From Kineococcus radiotolerans SRS30216 = ATCC BAA-149 (lineage in GTDB: Bacteria > Actinomycetota > Actinomycetes > Actinomycetales > Kineococcaceae), in contig NC_009664.2 in assembly GCF_000017305.1 (NCBI RefSeq), positions 1,740,001 through 1,772,000 on the forward strand: DNA of 32,000 nt. Reading direction: 5' to 3'. Shown here in pieces: positions 8,318 to 30,879 of this stretch. Under the pieces are notes generated by a model. That model saw only the letters and a list, made by a program, of their open reading frames with translations, was not told where the DNA came from and made no database searches. The number at the start of each line of letters is the position of its first letter. The first letter of the stretch is position 1. The position numbers were made by a program, and so were the translations under genes.

Positions 8318-8402
8318 CAGTGGAGGGGTCGCCCCCTGTCCCTCCTGCTCGTTCTAGCCTGACGATCGACGGTACACCGGTCCGGCGACACGCCGTCCGG
8401 AG

Positions 8403-8444
8403 CCCGTCTCGCAGGTCCTTCGCTGTTCGAACGGGCGAGACGGG
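8403..8444 (-). terminator. Stem-loop downstream of the GntR gene / within the ftsH upstream region
   Basis: Perfect 10-bp arms, CCCGTCTCGC (8403-8412) and GCGAGACGGG (8435-8444), flank a 22-nt loop. It lies 52 nt past the GntR stop on the minus strand. There is no U-tract, so it could equally be ftsH leader structure. Confidence 0.3.
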
Positions 8445-8495
8445 GCCCCTGTTCCGCACCACGGCGGCGGGTTCGCCGTGGGCGGACGCGGGGGC

Positions 8496-9161
8496 TCAGC
8501 CCAGTCCCAGCCGCGCGTACGCCCCGAGCACCGTCCGCTCGGACTCGGTGAGGTAGTCCTCCAGCTCGCGGGCGGCCGCCGGGCCGCCGTCCGCGACGAA
8601 CGTCTCCAGCACGGAGCGGTTGCGCTCCACGAAGGCGCCGTGCAGCGCCTGCGGGTCGCCGATGACGAGGAAGGCCAGCCGCAGCTCGGCGCTGAGCTGC
8701 CGGTAGGTCCGCCCCAGGCGCGGGCTGTCCGACAGCGAGACGAGGGCGGCGTGGAAGGCCATGTTGGCCGTCCCGACCCCGGCCCAGTCCCCCGCGGCCG
8801 CGGCGGCCTCGGCGGCCTCGACCGCTCCGCGCATCCGGGCGGTCGCGGGGTGCCGCGGGGCGGCCTTGACCAGCACGCCCGTCTCGAGGTGGCGCCGGAC
8901 GCGGTAGATGTCCAGGACGTCGGCGACCCGCGGGGCGGTGACCGAGACCCCGCGGTGCGGGACGTGCTCGAGCAGGCCCTGCTCGGCCAGCACCCGGAAG
9001 GCCTCGCGCAGGGTGTTGCGGGAGACGGAGAACCGCTCGGCCAGCTCGGCCTCGGACAGGCGCCGCCCCGGGCGGAACTCGCCGGCGGCGATCCGGGCGC
9101 TGAGCAGCTCGGCCAGCGTGCCGTCCTCGCGCCCGGTGTCGGGGATCGGCTCGGCGCTCAC
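8496..9161 (-). CDS. GntR family transcriptional regulator (FadR/FCD-type C-terminal domain)
   Basis: The winged-HTH region reads LSEAELAERFSVSRNTLREAFRVLAEQGLLEHVPHRGVSV, followed by an all-helical C-terminal domain. The start is uncertain: I chose GTG at 9161, while the ORF-track TTG at 9233 would add 24 aa. It is divergent from the permease-pxp operon. Confidence 0.8.
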   Translation of the reverse strand: MSAEPIPDTGREDGTLAELLSARIAAGEFRPGRRLSEAELAERFSVSRNTLREAFRVLAEQGLLEHVPHRGVSVTAPRVADVLDIYRVRRHLETGVLVKAAPRHPATARMRGAVEAAEAAAAAGDWAGVGTANMAFHAALVSLSDSPRLGRTYRQLSAELRLAFLVIGDPQALHGAFVERNRSVLETFVADGGPAAARELEDYLTESERTVLGAYARLGLG

Positions 9162-9244
9162 CGGGTCATCGTAGGTGGGGAGGGAGCCGCCGGACCGCCG
9201 GCGCCGCGGCAAGACGTAACACGAACGCAACAATGAGCAACCCG

Positions 9245-9255
9245 TTGTTCAACAA
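9245..9255. promoter_or_regulatory. Candidate GntR-type operator palindrome TTGTT-C-AACAA in the divergent promoter region
   Basis: This is the only AT-richer stretch of the window (about 9211-9290). It holds the perfect dyad TTGTTCAACAA, a further AACAA at 9229-9233, and a second small dyad ACCA-C-TGGT at 9277-9285. Both fit the generic GntR operator pattern (GT-N-AC core). Function is inference. Confidence 0.3.
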
Positions 9256-9338
9256 TCCACGCCATTGTGTTCTGCAACCACTGGTGCCAGAGTGCTGCCG
9301 TCCAGGCAGCGTCGCGACGGATCCCCGGGAGCAGCCCC

Positions 9339-10604
9339 ATGACCGGCAGCAACAGCACGCAGGAGAGCGGGACCCCCGCCCTCGCCACGGGTCGCCGGTC
9401 CCGCCGCGGCCCGATCATCGGCGCGATCTTCCTGATGGCGACCTCGGCCATCGGGCCGGGGTTCATCACCCAGACCGCGACCTTCACCGCCACCCTCGGC
9501 GCGGCCTTCGCCTTCGCGATCCTCCTCTCGATCCTCATCGACTTCGCCGTGCAGATGAACGTCTGGCGGCTCATCACGGTCACCGGCAAGCGCGCCGGTG
9601 ACCTCGCCAACAGCGCCGTCCCGTTCAGCGGCCACGTCCTGACCGTGCTCATCGTCGTCGGCGGCCTGGCCTTCAACATCGGCAACATCGCCGGCGGCGG
9701 CCTGGGCCTGAACGCCCTGCTCGGCCTGGACCCCAAGGTCGGCGGCCTGCTCACCGCCGTCCTGGCGATCGCGATCTTCCTGTTCAAGCGCGCCGGGACC
9801 GTCGTCGACCGCGTCGTGGTGGTGCTGGGCGTCGGCATGATCGTCATGACCGTGGTCGTCGCCGTCATCTCCGCCCCGCCCGTCGGGGACGCCTTCCGGC
9901 AGACCTTCGTGCCCGACACGGTCAACTTCGCGACCATCACCACGATCGTCGGCGGCACCGTCGGCGGGTACATCACCTACGCCGGGGCCCACCGCTACCT
10001 GGACTCCGGGCAGACCGGGGTCGAGCACGTCCGCGACGTCCACCGCGCCTCGGTCACCGGCATCCTCGTCACCGGGATCATGCGCTACGTCCTGTTCCTG
10101 GCCGTCCTGGGCGTCGTCGCCTCCGGCGTCGTGCTCGACCTGTCCGGCCAGGCGGCCAACCCCGCCGGGCAGGCCTTCGGCGCCGTCCTCGGTGACGCCG
10201 GCATCCGCATCTTCGGGGCGATCTTCTGGGCCGCGTCGATCACCTCCGTCATCGGCGCCGCGTACACCTCCTCGACGTTCCTCTCGACGTTCTCCCGCCG
10301 CCTGGCCGGCGGGTGGCCGCTGCAGCTGACCACCGTCGCCTTCATCGTCGTCTCGCTGGTCGTCTACCTGGCCATCGGCACCGCGCCGGCCGCGCTGCTC
10401 GTGTTCGTCGGCGGGTTCAACGGGCTGATCCTCCCGATCGGGATGACGGTGTTCCTCTACATCGGCTGGTTCCGCCAGCGCGACGTCCTGGGCGGGTACG
10501 CCTACCCGAAGTGGCTGCTCGTCGTCGGCACGATCGCGCTGGCCATCAGCTACTACATGGCCTCGCGGTCCATCGGCCCCGTCTTCGACTTCCTGTCCGC
10601 CTGA
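9339..10604 (+). CDS. NRAMP-superfamily permease, YcsG-like, lacking the canonical metal-binding residues
   Basis: ATG at 9339 is preceded by GGGAG with a 7-nt spacer. The protein is 421 aa with about 11 hydrophobic segments. It aligns by eye to MntH-type TM1 and TM6: GPGF...[15 protein letters not shown] and [16 protein letters not shown]. The DPGN (TM1) and MPH (TM6) motifs are absent. The same family (ycsG) sits in the B. subtilis ycsF-ycsG-ycsI-kipI-kipA operon. Confidence 0.8.
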
Positions 10605-10618
10605 CCCGGAGGGCTCCC

Positions 10619-11389
10619 GTGGCGACCATCGACCTCAACTCCGACCTCGGCGAGAACACCCCCGACCGCCCGGTCTCCGACGACGCGGCGATGCTGCGGA
10701 TCGTCACCAGCGCCAACGTCTCCTGCGGTTTCCACGCCGGCAGCCCCGAGGGCATCCGCGACACGGTGCTCGCCGCGTCGCGGGCGGGGGTGGCCATCGG
10801 CGCGCACCCCGGCTACCGCGACTACGAGAACTTCGGTCGCGAGCGCCTGGACCTGCCGGCCGCGACCCTGCAGGCCCACGTCGAGTACCAGCTCGGGGCG
10901 GTGTGGGCGCTGGCGCGCTCGGTCGGCGACGCCGTGGTCTACGTCAAGCCCCACGGCGCGCTGTACAACACGATGGCCGTCGACGAGGCGACGGCCTCGG
11001 TGGTGGTCGCGGCGGTCAAGGCCGTGGACCCCTCCCTGGTGCTGCTGGGGCTGGCCGGCGGGGTCGCCCTCGACGTCGCCGACCGGGCCGGGCTGCCCAC
11101 GGCGGCCGAGGCGTTCGCCGACCGGGCCTACACCCCGCAGGGGCAGCTGGTCTCCCGCAAGGAGCCCGGCGCGGTGCTGCACGACGTCGACCTGGTGGCC
11201 CGGCGCATGGTGCGGCTCGTCGAGGACGGCGTGGTCGAGGCGATCGACGGCACGGACGTGGCGGTGCGGGCCGAGTCGCTGTGCGTGCACGGCGACTCCC
11301 CCGGAGCGGTCGGGATGGCCGCGGCGACCCGGACCGCGCTGACCGGGGCCGGGGTCGAGATCGCGCCCTTCGTCGCGGGGGCCCGCTGA
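10619..11389 (+). CDS. pxpA: 5-oxoprolinase subunit A / LamB-YcsF family lactam-utilisation protein
   Basis: GTG at 10619 follows GGAGGG. Motifs are [38 protein letters not shown] and [11 protein letters not shown], all diagnostic of LamB/YcsF. Confidence 0.9.
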
Positions 11390-12192
11390 TGGTGCGCCTG
11401 GCCCCGGAGGAGCGGCGCCGCGAGGCCCGGGCCGCCCGGGCCGCCTACCGGGCCGGGCGCCGCGGACCCACCAGCGGCGTCGCGCCGGGCATGACCCAGG
11501 CCAACCTCGTGGCCGTCCCGGCGGACTGGGCGTTCGACGTGCTGCTCTACGCCCAGCGCAACCCGCGGGCCTGTCCCGTCCTGGACGTCCTGGAGGCGGG
11601 GCGGGTCGAGTCGGCGCTGGCCCCGGGCTCGGACGTCCGCACCGACCTGCCCGCCTACCTGGTCTTCCGCGACGGGGTGGTGGTCGAGGAGGTCCCCGAC
11701 GCGACCGGGTACTGGGACGACCTGGTGACGCTGCTCATCGGCTGCAGCTTCACCTTCGAGACCCCGCTGCTGGCGGCCGGCATCCCGGTGCGCCACCAGG
11801 AACTGGGCCGCAACGTCCCGATGTACCGCACGGACCGGCCCTGCGCCCCGGCCGGGCGGCTGCGCGGTGACCTCGTCGTCTCGATGCGCCCGGTCCCGGC
11901 CGACCGGGTCGCCGACGCGGTCGCGATCACCGGCCGGTTCCCCGCCGTGCACGGCGCCCCGGTGCACGTCGGGGACCCCGCGGCGCTCGGCATCGCCTCG
12001 CTGGACTCCCCCGACTTCGGCGACCCGCCCGTCGTGCGCGACGGGGAGGTCCCGGTGTTCTGGGCGTGCGGGGTGACCCCGCAGGCGGCGCTGTTCGCGT
12101 CCCGCCCGCCGTTCGCGGTGACCCACGCGCCCGGGCACATGTTCGTCACCGACGTGCTGGACTCCGAGTACGACGTCACGGGCGTCTCGTGA
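11389..12192 (+). CDS. DUF1445 / YcsI family putative hydro-lyase (family of D-glutamate cyclase)
   Basis: The ATG overlaps the pxpA stop (TGATG). The region [34 protein letters not shown] is typical of DUF1445. Its stop overlaps the next start (GTGA). Confidence 0.85.
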
Positions 12193-13745
12193 GGTTCCTG
12201 CCCGTCAGCGACACCGCGGTGATGGTCGAGCTGCGCGACCTGGACGAGACCACCCGGTTGTTCACGGCGCTCACCGCCGCCGACCTCCCCGGCGTCCGGG
12301 AGGTCGTGCCGGCCGCGCGCACGATCCTCGTGGTCTTCGACCCCCGCCGGGTGACCCCGGCGGAGCTCGTCGAACGGTTGCGCGCGGTCGAGCCCGCGGC
12401 GCGGGCGGCCGGCGCGGGCCGCTCCGTCACCCTCGACGTGCGCTACGACGGGCAGGACCTGGCCGAGGTCGCCGGCCTCCTGGGGGTCTCGGCGGAGGAA
12501 CTCGTCCGCCGGCACCAGGCGGCGACCTGGACGGTGGCGTTCACCGGGTACGCCCCGGGCTTCGGCTACCTCGTCGGCGACGACGAGCTGTTCGACGTGC
12601 CGCGCCGGTCCTCGCCGCGGACCCGGATCCCGGCGGGTTCGGTCGGGCTGGCCGGGAGGTTCTCCGGCGTCTACCCCCGCGAGAGCCCCGGCGGCTGGCA
12701 GCTCATCGGCCGCACCGACGCCGCGATGTGGGACATCGACCGGGACCCGCCGGCCCTGCTCGCCCCGGGCACCACGGTGCGCTTCACCCGGGTCGAGCGG
12801 GAGCTCGTCCCCGTCCGGGGCCCCCGTCCCGCGCCGGTGGCGTCGCAGTCCTCCGTCGAGGTCGTGAGCCCGGGGATCCAGCTCGTCCTGCAGGACCTGG
12901 GCCGGCCCGGGCACCTCGGAGAGGGCGTGGCCGCCTCCGGGGCGGCCGACCGCGCGGCCCTGCGCGCGGCCAACCGCGCCGTGGGGAACGCCCCGGGCAC
13001 GGCGGTGCTGGAGCTCGCGGGCGGCGGGGCCGCCCTGCGGTTCACCGGCGCCGGGGTGCTCGCGCTGGCCGGGGCGTCCGTCGCGGCGGAACTGCGCACG
13101 GCCGGCGGCGGCCGGCTCCCGGTCCTCCCCGGCCCGTTCGCCGTCGAGGACGGTGACGAACTCCGGTTCGGCGCCCAGAGCGACGGGCTGCGCACGGTGG
13201 TGGCGGTCCGCGGCGGTTTCGACGTCCCGGCCGCGCTGGCCTCGCTGGCCACCGACACCCTGTCCGGGGTCGGGCCCTCGCCGCTGCGCGCCGGGGACCG
13301 GCTGGCGCTGCACGGGCCCGCCGCCGCCCCGCACGCCGTCGACCCCTCCCCGGTCGCCGCGGCGGACCTGCCCCGCGCCGGGCGGACCGTCGACCTCGAC
13401 GTCGTCCTCGGCCCCCGCACCGACTGGTTCACCCCCGCGGCGCTGGAGGCGCTCACCACCCGGGAGTGGGAGGTCACGCCGCGCTCGGACCGGGTGGGGA
13501 TCCGGCTGGCCGGGACCCCGCTGGAACGGTCCCGCGACGGCGAGCTCCCCAGCGAGGGAGCGGTGACCGGCGCGATCCAGGTCCCCCCGGACGGGCAGCC
13601 CGTGCTGTTCGGGCCCGACCACCCGCTGACCGGCGGGTACCCCGTGATCGGGGCCGTCGTCGACGCCCACCTCGACCTCGTCGGGCAACTGCCCCCCGGC
13701 GCCCGCGTCCGGTTCCACCCCCGCGCCCCGTTCACCGACCTGTGA
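12189..13745 (+). CDS. pxpB-pxpC: Fused PxpB-PxpC (KipI/KipA; allophanate hydrolase subunit 1+2-like) protein: 5-oxoprolinase B/C components, also the carboxyltransferase-type domains of urea carboxylase
   Basis: 518 aa. The N-terminal half (about 12189-12800) has [13 protein letters not shown]...[31 protein letters not shown] (PxpB/KipI). The C-terminal half (about 12855-13745) has [26 protein letters not shown]...ANRAVGN...[10 protein letters not shown]...[12 protein letters not shown] (PxpC/KipA). A single reading frame joins them through a Pro/Ser linker. Confidence 0.9.
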
Positions 13746-13753
13746 GGAACCCC

Positions 13754-15481
13754 GTGAAGACCGTCTTGATCGCCAACCGGGGCGAGATCGCCGTGCGCGT
13801 GGTCCGCGCCGCCGCCGAGGCCGGGTTGCGTTCGGTCGCCGTCTACGCCGACCAGGACGCCGACGCCCTGCACGTCCGCCTGGCCGACACCGCCGTGGCG
13901 CTGCCCGGCGACACCGCCGCGCAGACGTACCTGGACGTGGACGCGCTGCTGGCGGCCGCGGAGGCCTCCGGCGCCGACGCGGTGCACCCCGGGTACGGGT
14001 TCCTGTCCGAGAACGCCGGGTTCGCCCGCGCCGTCGAGGCCGCCGGGCTGACCTGGATCGGGCCGACCCCCGAGACGATCGAGGCGCTGGGCGACAAGGT
14101 GACCGCGCGGGCCATCGCCCGCGACGCCGGCGCCCCCCTGGCGCCCGGCAGCACCGCCCCGCTGACCGGCGCGCGGCAGGCCGAGGAGTTCGCCGACGAG
14201 TTCGGGCTGCCGATCGTCGTCAAGGCCGCCCACGGCGGCGGCGGCCGCGGGATGCGGGTGGCGCGGACGCGCGAGGAGGTCGCCGACGCGTTCGAGTCCG
14301 CGACCCGGGAGGCCGTCGCGGCGTTCGGGCGCGGGGAGTGCTTCGTGGAGAAGTTCCTCGAACGCCCCCGGCACCTGGAGGTGCAGGTCCTCGGGGACGG
14401 CGCCGGGGGCGTCACGGTGGTGGGCGACCGCGACTGCTCGCTGCAGCGCCGCAACCAGAAGCTCGTCGAGGAGGCGCCCGCCCCGGGGCTCACGGACGAG
14501 CAGCGGCGGACCATCCACACCGCCGCGCGCGACATCTGCGCCGCGGTGGACTACCGCGGCGCCGGCACCGTGGAGTTCCTGCTCGGCGCCGACGGCACCC
14601 TGTCCTTCTGCGAGGTGAACACCCGGCTGCAGGTGGAGCACCCCGTCACCGAGCTGGTGACGGGGGTCGACCTGGTGCGCGAGCAGTTCCGCATCGCGGC
14701 CGGCGACGGGCCCTCGTTCACGCGGACGCCCGAGGTCCGCGGTCACGCGTTCGAGTTCCGCGTCAACGCCGAGGACCCGGGGCGGGGTTTCCTGCCCAGC
14801 CCCGGGCGGATCGAGCGCCTCCGCGTCCCCTCCGGCCCCGGCGTGCGCTGGGACGGCGGCGTCGAGGCCGGTGACTCCGTCGCGGCCGCGTTCGACTCCC
14901 TCGCCGGCAAGCTCCTCGTCCACGCCGGGGACCGCGACACCGCCCTGGCCCGCGCCCGCCGCGCCCTGGCCGAGTTCGAGATCACCGGGATCGCCACGGT
15001 GCTGCCGTTCTCGCGGGCCGTGGTCGACGAACCCGACTTCTCCACCGCGGGATTCGCCGTAGGGACGCAGTGGATCGAGTCCGAGCTCATGCCGCGACTC
15101 GTTCCCCAGCTGCGCCCGGCGCCGGCCACGACGCCCGTCCTGCAGCGGCTCCCGATCGAGATCGATGGCCGGATGGCGACCATCGGCCTGCCCGCGGCGT
15201 TCCTGGCCGCGCTGGGCTCGGTGCCGGGGACCCCCGAGACCTCCGGGACCCCGGAGGTCCGGGACGACGACGAGCACGAACTCACCGCCCGCACCCCCGG
15301 CACCCTCACCGCGTGGCTCGTCGAGGACGGCGCGGAGGTGACGGCGGGGCAGGACGTGGCCGTCGTGGAGGCGATGAAGATGGAGTCCCGGGTCCCCGCC
15401 CACCGGGCGGGGACGCTCAGCCGGGTCGCCGGCGAGGGGGCCTCCCTCGCGGCCGGGGAGGTCCTGGCGCGGATCGAGTGA
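13754..15481 (+). CDS. Biotin carboxylase + biotin carboxyl carrier fusion (acyl-CoA carboxylase alpha-subunit-like)
   Basis: GTG lies 8 nt after the pxpBC stop, with GAGGAA in the gap. The N-terminus is KTVLIANRGEIAVRVVRA. The ATP-grasp region has KAAHGGGGRGMRV and EVNTRLQVEHPVTE. The C-terminal biotinyl domain reads VAVVEAMKMESRV, with the Lys codon at 15377-15379. There is no carboxyltransferase beta subunit nearby. Confidence 0.9.
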   Translation: MKTVLIANRGEIAVRVVRAAAEAGLRSVAVYADQDADALHVRLADTAVALPGDTAAQTYLDVDALLAAAEASGADAVHPGYGFLSENAGFARAVEAAGLTWIGPTPETIEALGDKVTARAIARDAGAPLAPGSTAPLTGARQAEEFADEFGLPIVVKAAHGGGGRGMRVARTREEVADAFESATREAVAAFGRGECFVEKFLERPRHLEVQVLGDGAGGVTVVGDRDCSLQRRNQKLVEEAPAPGLTDEQRRTIHTAARDICAAVDYRGAGTVEFLLGADGTLSFCEVNTRLQVEHPVTELVTGVDLVREQFRIAAGDGPSFTRTPEVRGHAFEFRVNAEDPGRGFLPSPGRIERLRVPSGPGVRWDGGVEAGDSVAAAFDSLAGKLLVHAGDRDTALARARRALAEFEITGIATVLPFSRAVVDEPDFSTAGFAVGTQWIESELMPRLVPQLRPAPATTPVLQRLPIEIDGRMATIGLPAAFLAALGSVPGTPETSGTPEVRDDDEHELTARTPGTLTAWLVEDGAEVTAGQDVAVVEAMKMESRVPAHRAGTLSRVAGEGASLAAGEVLARIE

Positions 15482-15528
15482 TCCCTCCCGACGTGGATCA
15501 GCGCTGCGTACCTCGCCCCGACAGCGCC

Positions 15529-16065
15529 TCAGCGCCAGCCCAGCGCCGCCGCGACCTCGTCCGTGCTCACACCGAGCACCCCACTGCGCTCCACTGCACG
15601 GTCGGGACCCGTGAGCACCTGCACCGTCCGGGTCTGCGGGGTGATGACCCACACCTCGTCGACCCCCCGCTCGAAGTAGAAGGGGACCTTGGCCCAGGTC
15701 TCGTCCCCGGGCGACTCGAACTCCACGACGACCTCGACCGACGGGACGTAGAGGGTGGCCTCCTCCAGGGGAGTCGACGTCCACCCCATGTCGGGTACCC
15801 GGTAGTCCCGGTCGCCGGTCCCGAGGTTGAACTCCCCCATCGGGAACAGCTCGTGGTCGGCGGCCCGCCCGGCCAGCGCTATGCCGAGCCGGTACGCCAG
15901 CCGTCCGTGGCTGCTGTGCGCGTGCGGAACCACGTGGTAGACCCCGTCCCAGACCTCGTCCCGGCCGTCCTGACCCAACCGGCGCCGTTCAGCGAGCCAA
16001 CCGTCCAGCGCGTCACCGTGGGCGACGACGGTCCGGGACGCCGACCGTTCGACGATGGTGCTCAC
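15529..16065 (-). CDS. Uma2 (DUF820) family PD-(D/E)XK-like putative endonuclease
   Basis: GTG start with a strong [11 protein letters not shown] 5 nt upstream. Family hallmarks are GVYHVVP...RVPDMGW...PSVEVVVEFESPGDE...KVPFYFERGVDEVWVI. Confidence 0.75.
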   Translation of the reverse strand: MSTIVERSASRTVVAHGDALDGWLAERRRLGQDGRDEVWDGVYHVVPHAHSSHGRLAYRLGIALAGRAADHELFPMGEFNLGTGDRDYRVPDMGWTSTPLEEATLYVPSVEVVVEFESPGDETWAKVPFYFERGVDEVWVITPQTRTVQVLTGPDRAVERSGVLGVSTDEVAAALGWR

Positions 16066-16127
16066 CGCTGCCTCCTCCGACGTCGTGGAGCCCTGCCGTC
16101 AGGATGCCATGGACGCCGGGGATGACC

Positions 16128-16679
16128 TCAGCTGTAGACGTGCGGGGCCAGCGTCGCGACGCAGTCCAGGTTGCGGTACTTGTCGGCGAAGTCGAGGCCG
16201 AAGCCGACGACGAACTCGTTGGGGATGTCGTGGCCCACGTAGGCGACGTCGACCTCGACCTTGGCGGCGTCGGGCTTGCGCAGCAGCGCGCACACCTTCA
16301 CCGACGCGGGACCGCGGGAGCTGAGGTTGGCCAGCAGCCAGCTCAGGGTCAGGCCGGAGTCGATGATGTCCTCCACCACGAGGACGTGGCGGCCGGAGAT
16401 GTCGGTGTCGAGGTCCTTGAGGATGCGGACCACGCCGGAGCTCTTGGTGCCCGAGCCGTAGGAGCTGACGGCCATGAAGTCCATCGACAGCGGGATGCTC
16501 ATGGCGCGGGAGAGGTCGGCCATCACCATGACCGCGCCCTTGAGGACGCCCACGAGCAGCACGTCCTTGTCGGCGTAGTCGCGGTCGAGCTCGGCGGCGA
16601 GCTCGGCGATCCGAGCCGCCACCTGCTCACGGCTGAGCAGGACGTGCTCGAGGTCGGTCCCGGCGGTCGCTGCGTCCAC
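16128..16679 (-). CDS. hpt: Hypoxanthine(-guanine) phosphoribosyltransferase
   Basis: GTG at 16679 follows GGGAGAA. The protein is 183 aa with the PRPP loop [14 protein letters not shown] and the C-terminal [16 protein letters not shown]. The longer track ORF (to 16874) would overlap tilS. Confidence 0.93.
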
Positions 16680-26438: not shown

Positions 26439-26492
26439 CCCGCCGCCCCACCCCGCCCGACCCCCCGACCCCCCGACCCCAGGAGCAGCCCC

Positions 26493-27239
26493 GTGAGCAC
26501 CCCCACCGGCGACGGCGCGCACGCCGCCCGCCGCGACACCCCGGCCGGCCCGCAGCCCGGCACCACCACCGGCGACGACACCCCCAGCCTCGTCCACCAC
26601 TCCGGACCGGACCGCCGCCGCGCCCGCGAGGCCGCCCGCGAGGAGCGCCCCCAGCCCGCGCTGGACCGCAGGTCCGTGGTGGAGCGGGAGAAGAACGCCC
26701 ACGGCGGCGTCAAGGTCGGCTCGGCGTTCTTCGGCTGGCTCACCGCCACCGGCACCGCCGTCCTGCTGACCGCGCTGCTCGCCGCCACCGGCACCGCCGT
26801 CGGGCTGGCCAGCAGCGACAGCCTCGACCGGGCGATCTCGGGCGCGCGGGACAGCGCCGAGCGCAACGCCGGCGCGATCGGGGTCGCGGGCACCGTCGCC
26901 CTGCTCGTCGTCCTGCTCGTCTCCTACTTCTGCGGCGGCTACGTCGCCGGGCGGATGGCCCGGTTCAACGGGGTCAAGCAGGGTGTCGCGGTGTGGGTGT
27001 GGGCCGTCGTCATCGCCGTCGTCGTCGCCGTCCTCGCCGCGGTCGCGGGGAACCAGTTCGACGTCCTGGGCCGGCTGAACGCCTTCCCCCGCATCCCGGT
27101 GGACTCCGGTTCGCTGACCTCCGGGTCGATCCTCGCCGTCGTGGCCTCCGCGGTCGTCGCCCTGGTCGGCGCGATCCTCGGCGGCCTGGCCGGGATGCGC
27201 TTCCACCGCAAGGTCGACCGCGCCGGCCTCGGCCGCTGA
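26493..27239 (+). CDS. Hypothetical integral membrane protein (disordered N-terminus, ~4 TM)
   Basis: GTG follows AGGAG with a 7-nt spacer, 54 nt after the PRC/DUF2382 gene, so it is probably co-transcribed. The first ~75 aa are polar and disordered. Hydrophobic segments follow: VGSAFFGWLTATGTAVLLTALLAA, IGVAGTVALLVVLLVSYFCGGYV, GVAVWVWAVVIAVVVAVLAAVA, ILAVVASAVVALVGAILGGLAG. I recognise no family. Confidence 0.65.
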   Translation: MSTPTGDGAHAARRDTPAGPQPGTTTGDDTPSLVHHSGPDRRRAREAAREERPQPALDRRSVVEREKNAHGGVKVGSAFFGWLTATGTAVLLTALLAATGTAVGLASSDSLDRAISGARDSAERNAGAIGVAGTVALLVVLLVSYFCGGYVAGRMARFNGVKQGVAVWVWAVVIAVVVAVLAAVAGNQFDVLGRLNAFPRIPVDSGSLTSGSILAVVASAVVALVGAILGGLAGMRFHRKVDRAGLGR

Positions 27240-27706: not shown

Positions 27707-29689
27707 TCAGCCGCCGACGTGGATGCCCGGGCGGCGTCCCGGGTCCGGTTCGAGGCCGCGCAGGATCTCGCGGACGACGGGGGCGGTGTCGCCGCGGCCG
27801 AGGATCAGGTAGCGCATGAGGTGGCCCAGGGGGTTCCCCTCGGACCACTCGAAGTGGGCGTGCGGGCGCACCCCGGTCGCGTCGCGCAGCGCCAGCAGGA
27901 TCGCGGCGATGGCGTTGGGCGCGGCGGGGGCCTGGACCCGCAGGACGCGGTACGGCCCGACGCGGGTGCCGCGCACCACGAGGACCTCCGAGAACGTCGA
28001 CGGGTCGACGACCTCGACCTCCAGGAACTCCACGTCGGCCGCGCCGGGCACCGGGTCCATGGCCCGCACCCGGGCCTCCTTCGCCGCGTACTCGGCCTCG
28101 TCCCCCACCCCCGGGCGGTTGGCGATGAGGTGCAGGGCGCCGTCGAAGGCCAGCGACTCGGTGAGGATGCTGCGCGCGGTCTCGTCGAACTCGATGCGGT
28201 CGGCCCGCAGCTCGGTGGTCCGCGAGACGCGGGAGACGAGGGACACGACGACGATCCCGGCGATGAAGAGGCCCGAGATGGCGATGCCGTCCGGCTTCTC
28301 CAGGACGTTCTCCACCAGCGCGTAGAGCAGGACCGCGGTGAGGACGGCGAAACCCGCGGTGGCCCGGCGCCGGTGCTTGCGGGTCGCGGAGACGGTCACC
28401 GCGACGGCGCCGGAGACCATCATCACGAGGATCCCGGTGGCGTAGGCGCCGGCCTGCGCGTCGACGTCGGCGCGGAAGGCGACGGTGATGAGGACGCTGA
28501 TGGCGGTGTAGACGAGGACGACCGGGCGCACCGCGCGGCCCCACTCCGGCGCCATCCCGTACGTCGGCAGGTAGCGGGGCACGATGTTGATCAGACCGGC
28601 CATGGCGGAGGCGCCGGCGAACCACAGGATGAGGACGCTGGAGACGTCGTAGACGGTGCCGAAGCCGTTGCCGAGGTGCTCGTGGGCCAGGTAGGCCATC
28701 GCCCGGCCGCTGGCCGCCCCGCCCTCGCGGAACTCCTCGGCGGGGATGAGCACGGTGGTGACGAAGCTGGTCGCGAGCAGGTACACGCTCATGATCAGCG
28801 CCGCGGCGGTCAGCAGCCTGCGGGTGTTGCGGACGCGCGCGGCCAGGACCTCCTGCGGCGTGGAACCCTCCGCGGCGATGAGCGGCATCATCGACACGCC
28901 GGTCTCGAAACCGGACAGGCCCAGCACGAGCAGGGGGAAGGCCAGCACCGCCGGGCCCAGGACCCCGCCGATCCCCCCGCCGCCGGCGGTGAGCCGGTCG
29001 GTCCACCCGTGCAGCGCGGCCGGGTCGCGGACGACGTCGAGGAGCCCGACGACGACGACCGCGGCGTTCAGCAGCAGGAAGACCGCCACCAGGGGGATGG
29101 CGACGCCGACGGCCTCGCTGAACCCCTTGAGGAAGACCCCGCCCAGGACGAGCAGCAGGACCACGGTGATGAGCACCGCGTGCCCGTGCAGCGCGTCGGG
29201 CAGGTAGGGGTTCTCCAGCAGGTGCACCGAGGCGTCGGCGCTGGAGAGGGTGATCGTGATGATCCAGGAGGTGGCGACGAACCCGAGGAGGACGAGCACG
29301 GACACCTTGCCCCGCCAGAACGGCAGGAGGTCCTCCAGCATCGCCACCGACCCCTGACCGTGCGGGCTCTCCGCCGCCACCCTGCGGTACATCGGCAGCA
29401 TCCCCAGCAGGGTCAGCGCGACGATGAGCAGGGTGGCCAGCGGTGAGAGCGCCCCCGCGGCCAGGGCGGCGATCCCGGGCAGGTAGGAGAGGGTGGAGAA
29501 GTAGTCCACCCCCGTGAGGCACATGACCTTCCACCAGGCCTGCGGGTGGGCCTGCTCGGTGGCGGCGACCGGTCCCGGCGGCTGCACGCGGTCGGCCAGG
29601 AGCCAGCGCTTCAGGCCGGTGGGCGGCACCTGCCCCGGGGTGGGGCAGTCCACCTGCGCGGGGACGGCGTAGTCGGGGGTGGCGCTCAC
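27707..29689 (-). CDS. APC-superfamily-like permease with a ~170-aa C-terminal cytoplasmic domain
   Basis: This is the last 660 codons of track ORF 27707..30955. It has about 12 hydrophobic segments and an APC-like TM1-2 region, [22 protein letters not shown]. The soluble C-terminus runs [12 protein letters not shown]...[23 protein letters not shown]. The GTG at 29689 overlaps the AI-2E gene stop (GTGA). The start is inferred and internal starts are possible. Confidence 0.7.
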
Positions 29690-30879
29690 GCCTGGTGCGC
29701 GCCGTCGCCGGGCAGCCGGATCTCGCGCGGTGCGGAACCGACCGGTTCGCGGTCCTCCCCGACCGTCACCTCGCCCTTGGGCCGTCCCCTGCGGTGGTCC
29801 CACACGTCGCGGACGACGACCTGGGCGATGCTCGCCACCGGGATCGCCAGCAGCGCACCGAGGATCCCGGCCAGCTCGACGGACAGCAGGATGGCCACGA
29901 TGACCGTCAGCGGGTTCAGCTTCACGGTGCGGGAGAAGATCAGCGGCTGCAGCAGGTGGTTCTCCAGCTGCTGGTAGACGAGGAAGAACACCAGCACCGC
30001 GATGCCGGCCGGCACCGAGTGCACGAGCCCGGCGACCACGGCCACGACGGCGCCGATGGTGGCGCCGACCAGCGGGATCAGGTCGGCGATGGCGACGAAC
30101 AGGGCGATGAGGCCGGCGAAGGGGACACCGGCGATCTTCAGCACGGCGTAGGTGAGGACGCCGCAGATGGCGCTGATGAGGAGGTTCCCCGAGAGGTACC
30201 CGGTGACCGACTTCGCGCAGTCCGCCCCCACGCTCCGCAGCCGGTGGGCCGTGGGCGCGTGGAAGAGGTTGACGAAGCCGTCGACGACCTTGGGGCCCTC
30301 CAGCACCATGAGGAACGCGAGGACGAAGATCGACGCGGCGCCGGCCGCACTCGTGGCGACGCCGCTGAGCACCCCGGCGGCGGGGGTGGTCAGGCCGGTG
30401 GCGAAGCTCCGGATGCGGTCCTGGTTGTCCTGCACGTAGGTCAGCGCGCCGGTCCGCTCCAGCAGGTTGCCGACGGGACCGCGACCCGCCCGGGCGTCGT
30501 CGATGAGCTGGGGCAGCTGCCCGGCGAACTTCGTGCCCTCCTGGGCCAGCGGGACGACGAAGAGGGTCCCGATCCCGGCGAGCACCAGGACGATGACCAC
30601 GAACACCAGGAGCGTGGCGAGGGAACGGCGCTTCCCGCCCAGCAGGCGGCGCTCCACCCACCCCACCACGGGGTAGAGGGCGATGGCGAAGAACGCCGCC
30701 ACGACGATCCAGGTGAGCACCTGCAGGGTCTGCAGCACGATGTACAGCACCAGCGCCGTCGCCAGCAGGAGACCGATGGCGGTCAGGATGGTGCGGACGG
30801 TTCCCGGGGAGGGGGCCCGCTCGTCGGAGACGCCGCCGAGGGCCGTCACCTCGCGGGGGGTTCCTGCGTCGTTGGTCAC
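29686..30879 (-). CDS. AI-2E family transporter (PerM/YhhT/UPF0118)
   Basis: 397 aa with about 8 TM. The characteristic C-terminal region reads [21 protein letters not shown]...[34 protein letters not shown]. The GTG start has no obvious RBS. Confidence 0.85.

Follow-up and report, generated by a model that had tools for sequence, protein, structure and literature searches.

Why does an operon for a PxpABC-type 5-oxoprolinase end in a gene for a biotin carboxylase? The question is raised by a 32,000-nucleotide stretch of the Kineococcus radiotolerans SRS30216 genome (contig NC_009664.2, positions 1,740,001 to 1,772,000; hereafter the window, whose coordinates are used throughout). Five consecutive plus-strand genes at 9339-15481 encode an Nramp-like permease, the LamB/YcsF lactamase subunit PxpA, a DUF1445 protein, a fused PxpB-PxpC protein (PxpBC) and a protein joining biotin carboxylase (BC) and biotin carboxyl carrier protein (BCCP) domains, with a divergent GntR/FCD regulator upstream. 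A mobile cassette with the order regulator / Nramp - PxpA - (DUF1445) - fused PxpBC - BC/BCCP is widespread, and the locus represents its actinobacterial (Kineococcus-type) form. We put at about even odds (roughly 0.5) the reading that the operon is a 5-oxoproline-responsive catabolic or repair system with biotin-assisted opening of the lactam ring, in which we infer the inducer, the substrate and the carboxybiotin chemistry.

BC-BCCP is a conserved operon partner of PxpA and PxpBC in relatives, in line with the original prediction. Fused PxpBC was searched against 185,579 species genomes, yielding 80 loci whose gene content was called by tblastn with six window proteins; the downstream gene was assessable in 70. 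BC-BCCP lies directly downstream of PxpBC in 45 of these 70 (BC+ loci; median gap, 39 nt), in both Actinomycetota and Proteobacteria, and the other 25 are without it (BC- loci). PxpA is present in 45/45 BC+ and 23/25 BC- loci. A GntR regulator homologue divergent to the operon (42/45), Nramp (37/45) and DUF1445 (29/45) accompany the BC+ loci and occur in none of the 25 BC- loci. DUF1445 sits downstream of BC-BCCP in two cases (L047 and L050). The conserved core is PxpA, PxpBC and BC-BCCP, with DUF1445 and Nramp as frequent accessories. Sampled from the other side, all five BC-BCCP homologues taken (68-85% identical) proved to be cassette members, no two of them in the same genomic surroundings, and the best 120 matches listed in a protein search with BC-BCCP were all cassette-type.

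The BC+ PxpBC proteins form a single clade across Actinomycetota and Proteobacteria, including Kineococcus, Agrococcus, Nocardioides, Microbacterium, Kocuria, Promicromonospora, Leucobacter, Comamonas, Hydrogenophaga and a record titled Sphingomonas. The PxpBC and BC-BCCP trees agree, which suggests that the genes were passed on together, both by descent and in transfers between phyla. BC-BCCP shares 83-87% identity with most Kineococcus proteins, 75% with that of K. gynurae and ~70% with those of Agrococcus, Nocardioides and Microbacterium. Kineococcus sp. DHX-1 (L001; CP170445.1) has an identical locus, also between ftsH and hpt, and in Nocardioides luteus the six genes recur in unrelated surroundings. 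The arrangement of the five genes recurs in dozens of genomes and is therefore far beyond chance, and the whole cassette (8354-16127) behaves like a movable module.

The surroundings of the cassette are ftsH/hpt in Kineococcus, guaA in Nocardioides, serA/leuB in Agromyces, uvrB/uvrA in Pseudoclavibacter and GH1-LacI in Microbacterium lacticum (L001, L002, L084, L085 and L086, respectively). Five loci from Comamonas, Hydrogenophaga, an unclassified proteobacterial metagenome-assembled genome and the record titled Sphingomonas (L036, L038, L041, L059 and L071) encode an AccA3-type fused BC-BCCP in the actinobacterial style that shares about 58-61% identity with the window protein and about 60-62% with Mycobacterium smegmatis AccA3. 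There the protein belongs to the cassette, the GntR operator is kept and Nramp is absent.

The five-gene architecture is already known, and the window holds a differently regulated member; the novelty implied by the original prediction does not hold. The same five-gene operon was described and mutated in Acinetobacter baumannii in 2016 as mumTLUHC (A1S_1266-A1S_1270; Juttukonda, Chazin & Skaar, mBio 2016, PMC5050338; gene table, PMC2848557). It shares the order NRAMP, LamB/YcsF, DUF1445, fused AHS1/AHS2 and BC-type carboxylase, and the Pfam calls in the window match the labels of A1S_1266-1270; the likeness is one of family labels and gene order. A search seeded with Comamonas PxpBC returned Burkholderiales only and no Acinetobacter MumH. 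The mum genes form a single transcript by reverse transcription PCR (PMC5050338), and all five are co-repressed by ethanol in RNA sequencing (PMC2848557). The authors counted such clusters in 88 SEED genomes, noted 'portions' of them in Actinobacteria and called them broadly conserved (PMC5050338). The regulators differ: mum answers to MumR, a LysR-type protein confined to Acinetobacter (PMC5050338), and the window has a GntR/FCD protein with a PxpR operator.

The carboxylase encoded in the window looks catalytically intact. BC-BCCP is a 575-aa protein with the BC and BCCP domains, intact catalytic residues and MKM motif of an AccA3-type alpha subunit; the predicted AMKM biotinylation site is indeed there, at residues 540-543, with K542 as the biotinyl lysine. 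Its best PDB matches, both full length, are AccA3 of M. tuberculosis (5mlk, E = 4.7e-192) and of M. smegmatis (7.4e-188), and identity to mycobacterial AccA3 is about 56-57% over the full length. No Pfam match to a BT domain was found in the protein. Consistent with the predicted lack of an acyl-CoA carboxyltransferase, no Carboxyl_trans (AccD/PccB) domain was found in 26 high-GC3 open reading frames (ORFs) scanned across the window (GC3, codon-position GC), nor was a Carboxyl_trans gene found in the examined cassette loci. The 49 cassette BC-BCCPs compared share only 56-87% identity (175/552 columns invariant), and the BC catalytic residues, the glycine loop and the biotinyl lysine/MKM are invariant in all 49. 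The invariant BC residues are the equivalents of Escherichia coli K116, K159, H209, K238, E276, E288, N290, R292, E296 and R338, in the numbering established for that enzyme; K238 and E296 correspond to K236 and E295 of the window protein. Mycobacterial AccA3 branches outside the grouped cassette proteins. This suggests a paralogue clade separate from AccA3 but does not prove it, because the basal branching is poorly resolved and the comparison holds two AccA3 sequences, with identities all 56-62%.

PxpBC combines CT_C_D and CT_A_B in a single 518-aa protein. Its best PDB matches are MSMEG_0435 (E = 3.5e-62) and MSMEG_0436 (7.5e-52) of M. smegmatis, followed in order by the fused Thermus thermophilus TTHA0988, E. 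coli YbgK/YbgJ (PxpC/PxpB) and residues 477-784 of Kluyveromyces lactis urea carboxylase (1.3e-31). Matches to 3MML, 9YX5, 3OEP, 5DUD and 3VA7 settle the fold at the sequence level. The protein passes the family-level model TIGR00724 (233 bits; cut-off, 230.2), falls slightly short of the PxpB model TIGR00370 (139.8 versus 145.55 bits) and stays below the PxpC equivalog NF045499 (164.9 versus 500 bits). Cryo-electron microscopy (PNAS 2026; PDB 9YX5, 3MML) caught MSMEG_0435-0436 bound to the AccA3 BCCP domains of the long-chain acyl-CoA carboxylase, with MSMEG_0435 holding the AccA3 biotin 'positioned to participate in a carboxylation reaction' (PMC13012033). Since this pair and AccA3 are the closest solved relatives of PxpBC and BC-BCCP, the window encodes side by side two kinds of protein known to dock via biotin. 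In M. smegmatis, the housekeeping AccA3 serves as the partner in trans, whereas the window supplies an apparently dedicated paralogue from the same operon, plus PxpA. A tree built on the PxpC region puts MSMEG_0435 into the actinobacterial group that is sister to the BC+ clade, with E. coli PxpC and urea carboxylase far outside.

The protein encoded at a Mycolicibacterium locus (L046:8001-9566) shares 82% identity with MSMEG_0435 in the PxpC region, and the match extends over both a PxpB-like and a PxpC-like part. Neither PxpA nor a BC gene was found within 8 kb, which fits a PxpBC that works with housekeeping AccA3 in trans.

The pairing of BC-BCCP with a KipI/KipA-type protein mirrors urea carboxylase, as had been reasoned from the sequence at the outset. 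The NCBIfam urea_carbox model (TIGR02712) is matched at positions 2-433 by BC-BCCP (541 bits) and at positions 445-748 by PxpBC (184.7 bits); neither reaches the cut-off of 1303.85, the urea carboxylase modules being split over two genes. Urea carboxylase/urea amidolyase (K. lactis; PDB 3VA7, 5I8I) shares the BC, KipA/KipI-type carboxyltransferase (CT) and BCCP modules and performs an ATP/bicarbonate N-carboxylation followed by hydrolysis. It is, however, one BC-CT(AB,CD)-BCCP polypeptide plus an amidase-signature allophanate hydrolase, whereas the window distributes the modules over separate genes, orders the CT parts CD-AB, shows CT motifs of the Pxp type and has LamB/YcsF as the hydrolase. 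Alignment to 3VA7 places the motif PSEG...IQVPPDGQP...TGGYP in the PxpC half, and not the urea carboxylase version PSNAHDYVYS...SLGGF with its insertion. An identity of the fused PxpBC as an allophanate hydrolase was considered and rejected, as the protein consists of CT_C_D and CT_A_B and lacks an amidase-signature domain; the Pfam scan found no Amidase-domain allophanate hydrolase in the cassette or the window. The original idea of a urea-carboxylase-like split system survives in part. The logic of the pairing is reasonable, and the nearest PxpBC relative grips the AccA3 biotin (PMC13012033), but no urea-type features were found.

The regulatory region points to 5-oxoproline. The divergent regulator has the domain layout of Corynebacterium glutamicum PxpR, which binds 5-oxoproline (KD 0.7 uM) and not Glu, Gln, Pro or Asp (PMC13274462). 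The intergenic region carries TTGTTCAACAA at 9245-9255, within an inverted repeat, ccgTTGTTCAACAAtcc, that agrees with the PxpR operator agATTGTTCAACAATct, validated by mutation in C. glutamicum (PMC13274462), at 13/17 bases, including a contiguous 13-base core; the number of matches expected by chance in the window is 0. The pattern TTGTT[CG]AACAA is found in the regulator/operon gap of 35 of the 42 BC+ loci having the regulator, proteobacterial loci included, and in 0/25 BC- loci. Because the operator core is shared and conserved in these gaps, the GntR/FCD protein is probably a PxpR orthologue. The likeness extends to the C. glutamicum pxpR-pxpTABC locus as a whole (AEM 2026, PMC13274462), which functions in 5-oxoproline catabolism/detoxification and is required for growth on this compound. 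There, as in the window, a divergent GntR/FCD repressor and the inverted-repeat operator ATTGTTCAACAAT precede genes for an Nramp-like transporter, PxpA and PxpB/PxpC; for PxpR and PxpT this likeness is one of domain layout, gene order and operator. The Bacillus subtilis locus pxpA(ycsF)-ycsG-ycsI-kipI-kipA-kipR, which serves the same function, shares the DUF1445 gene (ycsI) too. Both known loci are without BC-BCCP and have separate PxpB and PxpC, whereas the window has a PxpB-PxpC fusion and an AccA3-like carboxylase. Just downstream of the operator, at 9260-9290, lies a further imperfect repeat-like stretch, cattgtgttctgcaaccactgg, a candidate for a promoter element or a second half-site.

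Two of the other proteins suggest the same substrate. PxpA passes the NCBIfam PxpA model NF003814 (322.7 bits; cut-off, 226), with 1v6t, 2dfa and 1xw8 (YbgL) as PDB relatives. The DUF1445 protein scores 389 bits against NF003969 (cut-off, 324), and its sole PDB relatives are the structural-genomics entries 2pif and 3db9. DUF1445 is now named D-Glu_cyclase in Pfam; D-glutamate cyclase converts D-glutamate to 5-oxo-D-proline. Together, the PxpR-type operator, a PxpA above its cut-off and a D-glutamate-cyclase homologue make 5-oxoproline the most likely inducer and substrate, with ligand specificity judged by homology, and the earlier description of the substrate as unknown was too pessimistic. 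The permease scores far under the MntH cut-off (35.6 versus 430 bits, NCBIfam). Its proposed role as substrate importer is uncertain: the Nramp-like PxpT of C. glutamicum is needed for growth on 5-oxoproline (PMC13274462), whereas the Nramp homologues MumT of A. baumannii and YcsG of B. subtilis import Mn2+ (PMC5050338, PMC10448178).

These elements can be arranged into a mechanism. The PxpR orthologue, bound at the TTGTTCAACAA operator, would repress the operon until 5-oxoproline appears. The AccA3-like BC domain would then carboxylate the biotin on its own BCCP domain, using ATP and bicarbonate, and the BCCP arm would be received by the urea-carboxylase-CT-like PxpBC. There, carboxybiotin may activate the lactam N or O of 5-oxoproline, or of a very close lactam, much as urea is converted to allophanate. 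The metal-dependent lactamase PxpA would open the ring, with release of CO2 and formation of glutamate. The net reaction would be that of an ATP-dependent 5-oxoprolinase in which bicarbonate is catalytic. The D-glutamate-cyclase-family protein might link D-glutamate/5-oxo-D-proline to the pathway, and the Nramp protein might supply Mn2+, import the lactam, or both. We favor this biotin-assisted model because of the gene layout with its translational coupling, the co-inheritance, the intact BC residues, the PxpR operator and the docking of the nearest relatives via biotin, and because urea carboxylase is a natural fusion of the same modules. A lactam is favored as substrate since Pseudomonas putida PxpABC paralogues act on 5-oxoproline and butyrolactam. 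The specific step, a biotin-dependent 5-oxoprolinase (a lactam 'amidolyase') in which carboxybiotin from the dedicated BC-BCCP activates the lactam in PxpBC for hydrolysis by PxpA, is put forward tentatively. Our search of the literature on pxpA, KipI/KipA or allophanate hydrolase subunits together with biotin carboxylase found no account of a biotin-dependent Pxp system.

Several observations weigh against a biotin-assisted 5-oxoprolinase. B. subtilis PxpA, PxpB and PxpC are reported to reconstitute 5-oxoprolinase without a biotin protein (Niehaus 2017), so biotin is not intrinsic to the family; for the window, the conserved BC-BCCP partner makes such biotin independence doubtful. Carboxylation of a lactam is itself a hypothetical step. 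The operator match speaks for orthology of the DNA-binding domain, not for ligand specificity. Three Microbacterium loci (L021, L022 and L024) are nested in the BC+ clade and have lost BC-BCCP, so the carboxylase can be dispensed with or replaced. In A. baumannii, deletion of mumC gives a urea phenotype, the only one reported for a cassette carboxylase, and deletion of mumL or mumU gives none under the tested conditions, which excluded 5-oxoproline (PMC5050338). Finally, the published effect of MSMEG_0435/0436, the only one reported for a PxpBC/BCCP complex, is inhibition of acyl-CoA carboxylase, not catalysis (PMC13012033).

One of the three loci, L021:6535-9596 of Microbacterium oxydans DR951, consists of TetR-PxpA-PxpBC without Nramp, DUF1445, GntR or BC-BCCP. 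It occupies the same GH1-LacI site at which M. lacticum (L086) has the full cassette and looks like a reduced derivative that either no longer needs the carboxylase or relies on one supplied in trans. In another Microbacterium (sp. NPDC077644; L057:8612-8970), the PxpBC match comes in two pieces (query 1-206 and 222-509) about 360 nt apart, which could reflect an insertion or disruption between the PxpB and PxpC halves.

The Microbacterium derivatives that retain PxpA-PxpBC without BC-BCCP also speak for the alternative that PxpABC is an ordinary, biotin-independent 5-oxoprolinase, with BC-BCCP as a sink that protects the housekeeping AccA3 upon induction of the operon, or with PxpBC tuning a carboxylase built on BC-BCCP. 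Added MSMEG_0435-0436 does lower propionyl-CoA carboxylase activity by about 50% through biotin sequestration (PMC13012033), and it is established that the B. subtilis enzyme needs no biotin protein. A decoy, however, would need the BCCP alone, yet the BC catalytic residues are invariant in 49/49 cassette proteins; moreover, BC+ is the ancestral condition of a large clade, and it moves between phyla as a unit. We consider such a sink or regulatory role unlikely.

The same machinery might instead act on a different small lactam or a cyclic amide, for example 2-pyrrolidone/butyrolactam or something resembling a hydantoin. One P. putida PxpABC paralogue is specific for butyrolactam and another for 5-oxoproline, and the PxpC equivalog model is missed by the window protein, as given above. 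Conservation of the PxpR operator, the D-glutamate cyclase homologue, which ties the cassette to glutamate/5-oxoproline chemistry, and the parallel with C. glutamicum pxpR-pxpTABC nevertheless make a different substrate distinctly improbable.

[quoted passage not shown] Transferred to the window, MumC and the KipI/KipA-type protein would form a split urea carboxylase, and the operon would degrade urea or a close amidine (guanidine). The A. baumannii mumC deletion mutant is urea-sensitive and does not grow on urea as sole nitrogen source, but the mumH deletion mutant, without the CT-like protein, retains growth on urea (PMC5050338). Urea carboxylase does fuse the same modules; MumH-type proteins, however, are not allophanate hydrolases (PMC13012033), and the amidase-signature hydrolase is absent from cassette and window. 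Urea carboxylase activity was not detected for MSMEG_0435-0436 (PMC13012033), the PxpC half has the Pxp-type motif instead of the insertion-bearing one, PxpA exceeds the PxpA cut-off, and the operator is that of a 5-oxoproline sensor. The urea interpretation predates the discovery of PxpABC and fits poorly with both the mumH deletion phenotype and the MumH-type fold; for this cassette we rate its chances as slim.

That BC-BCCP is an ordinary acyl-CoA carboxylase alpha subunit merely placed beside the pxp genes, the alternative offered by the original prediction in view of what is a full-length similarity to AccA3 (and the database annotation likewise), is strongly disfavored and can be set aside, given the adjacency in 45/45 and 5/5 loci across contexts and phyla, the 8-nt junction with its ribosome-binding site, the congruent BC-BCCP and PxpBC trees, the occurrence of the AccA3-type protein in Comamonadaceae loci only as part of the cassette, and the lack of AccD/PccB in the 32 kb and of a BT domain in the protein.

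A further candidate relative is found in Pseudomonas aeruginosa, where PA0492, PA0495 and PA0496 are putative LamB/YcsF, KipI and KipA proteins. BC and BCCP are separate proteins in that system. The PA0492-PA0496 operon contains the AccB-like PA0493 and the AccC-like PA0494 (55% identical to AccC) with conserved hypothetical genes, and its function was stated to be unknown (PMC6249292, PMC5521831).

Cassette BC-BCCPs are entered in databases as acetyl-, propionyl- or methylcrotonyl-CoA carboxylase alpha subunits, PxpBC genes variously as allophanate hydrolase, KipI-family kinase inhibitor or 5-oxoprolinase, and the sole functional paper on the operon assigns urea catabolism. To this we add the PxpR-type operator, the nearest solved relatives bound via biotin, and the failure to find urea-type features. 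If a biotin-dependent 5-oxoprolinase is correct, biotin enzymes would gain a new reaction class, and the Mum 'urea carboxylase/allophanate hydrolase' of A. baumannii, a priority pathogen, would become a 5-oxoproline system. The MSMEG_0435-0436/AccA3 complex would then be a catalytic partnership, not a purely inhibitory one, and actinobacterial PxpBC proteins without a neighboring carboxylase might borrow the housekeeping AccA3, which bears on the role of MSMEG_0435-0436 and Rv0263c-Rv0264c at AccA3 in mycobacteria. In this way the Mum 'urea' system and the binding of MSMEG_0435-0436 to AccA3, both of them puzzles in the literature, are joined in one testable hypothesis.

The layout of the locus (Table 1) agrees with what had been described from the sequence. 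The window has a G+C content of about 76%, and reading frames were judged by a GC3 plot, which together with the translations backs the five operon frames. Gene coordinates and translations were reproduced exactly, and profile searches (Pfam, NCBIfam) bore out every domain call. The genes are separated by 14 nt (Nramp/PxpA), an overlap of -1 nt in TGATG (PxpA/DUF1445), an overlap of -4 nt in GTGA (DUF1445/PxpBC) and 8 nt (PxpBC/BC-BCCP), where the ribosome-binding site GAGGA overlaps the PxpBC stop codon. The Nramp start at 9339 is backed by homologues aligning from residue 1. The true GntR start probably lies further downstream than 9233, near 9161, since homologues are 212-229 aa long. No promoter-like or terminator-like sites were found in a scan of 8400-16200, including the 13745-13754 gap where a separate promoter or terminator would have detached BC-BCCP from the operon; for an actinobacterium of 76% G+C, this shows merely that there is no obvious internal terminator.

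Table 1. Features of the operon and its regulatory region, in window coordinates, with Pfam E-values where given
Feature	Position	Strand	Evidence
GntR/FCD regulator	8496..9233	-	divergent from operon; Pfam GntR 9.5e-17, FCD 7.8e-16
Inverted-repeat operator ccgTTGTTCAACAAtcc	9242..9258, core 9245-9255	none	likeness to C. glutamicum PxpR site
Nramp-like permease (PxpT/MumT/YcsG type)	9339..10604	+	Pfam Nramp 2.6e-23
PxpA (LamB/YcsF lactamase subunit; MumL equivalent)	10619..11389	+	Pfam LamB_YcsF 2.5e-90, full length
DUF1445/D-glutamate-cyclase-family 'putative hydro-lyase' (PxpI/YcsI/MumU equivalent)	11389..12192	+	Pfam D-Glu_cyclase 3.7e-65
Fused PxpB-PxpC (MumH equivalent; urea-carboxylase-CT-like module)	12189..13745	+	CT_C_D 7.5e-65, CT_A_B 1.1e-80
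AccA3-type BC+BCCP (MumC equivalent)	13754..15481	+	Biotin_carb_N, CPSase_L_D2, Biotin_carb_C, Biotin_lipoyl

Elsewhere in the window, two long ORFs with coding-like GC3, at 26439-27239 (+) and 27707-29701 (-), gave no Pfam match at E <= 1e-5; genes for a PRC-barrel/DUF2382 protein and a GGDEF-EAL protein lie near them. The cassette itself is flanked by housekeeping genes, with folK, folP and ftsH on one side and hpt, a zincin-like peptidase, a D-Ala-D-Ala carboxypeptidase and ppa on the other, and for this reason resembles an insertion at the ftsH-hpt boundary. A gene for a Uma2-family putative restriction endonuclease, at 15529-16098 (-), separates the operon from hpt. At the same place, Kineococcus sp. 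DHX-1 has instead a Smr-domain gene and an NTP_transf_2 (nucleotidyltransferase, toxin-antitoxin-like) pair, which marks the operon/hpt junction as a variable spot.

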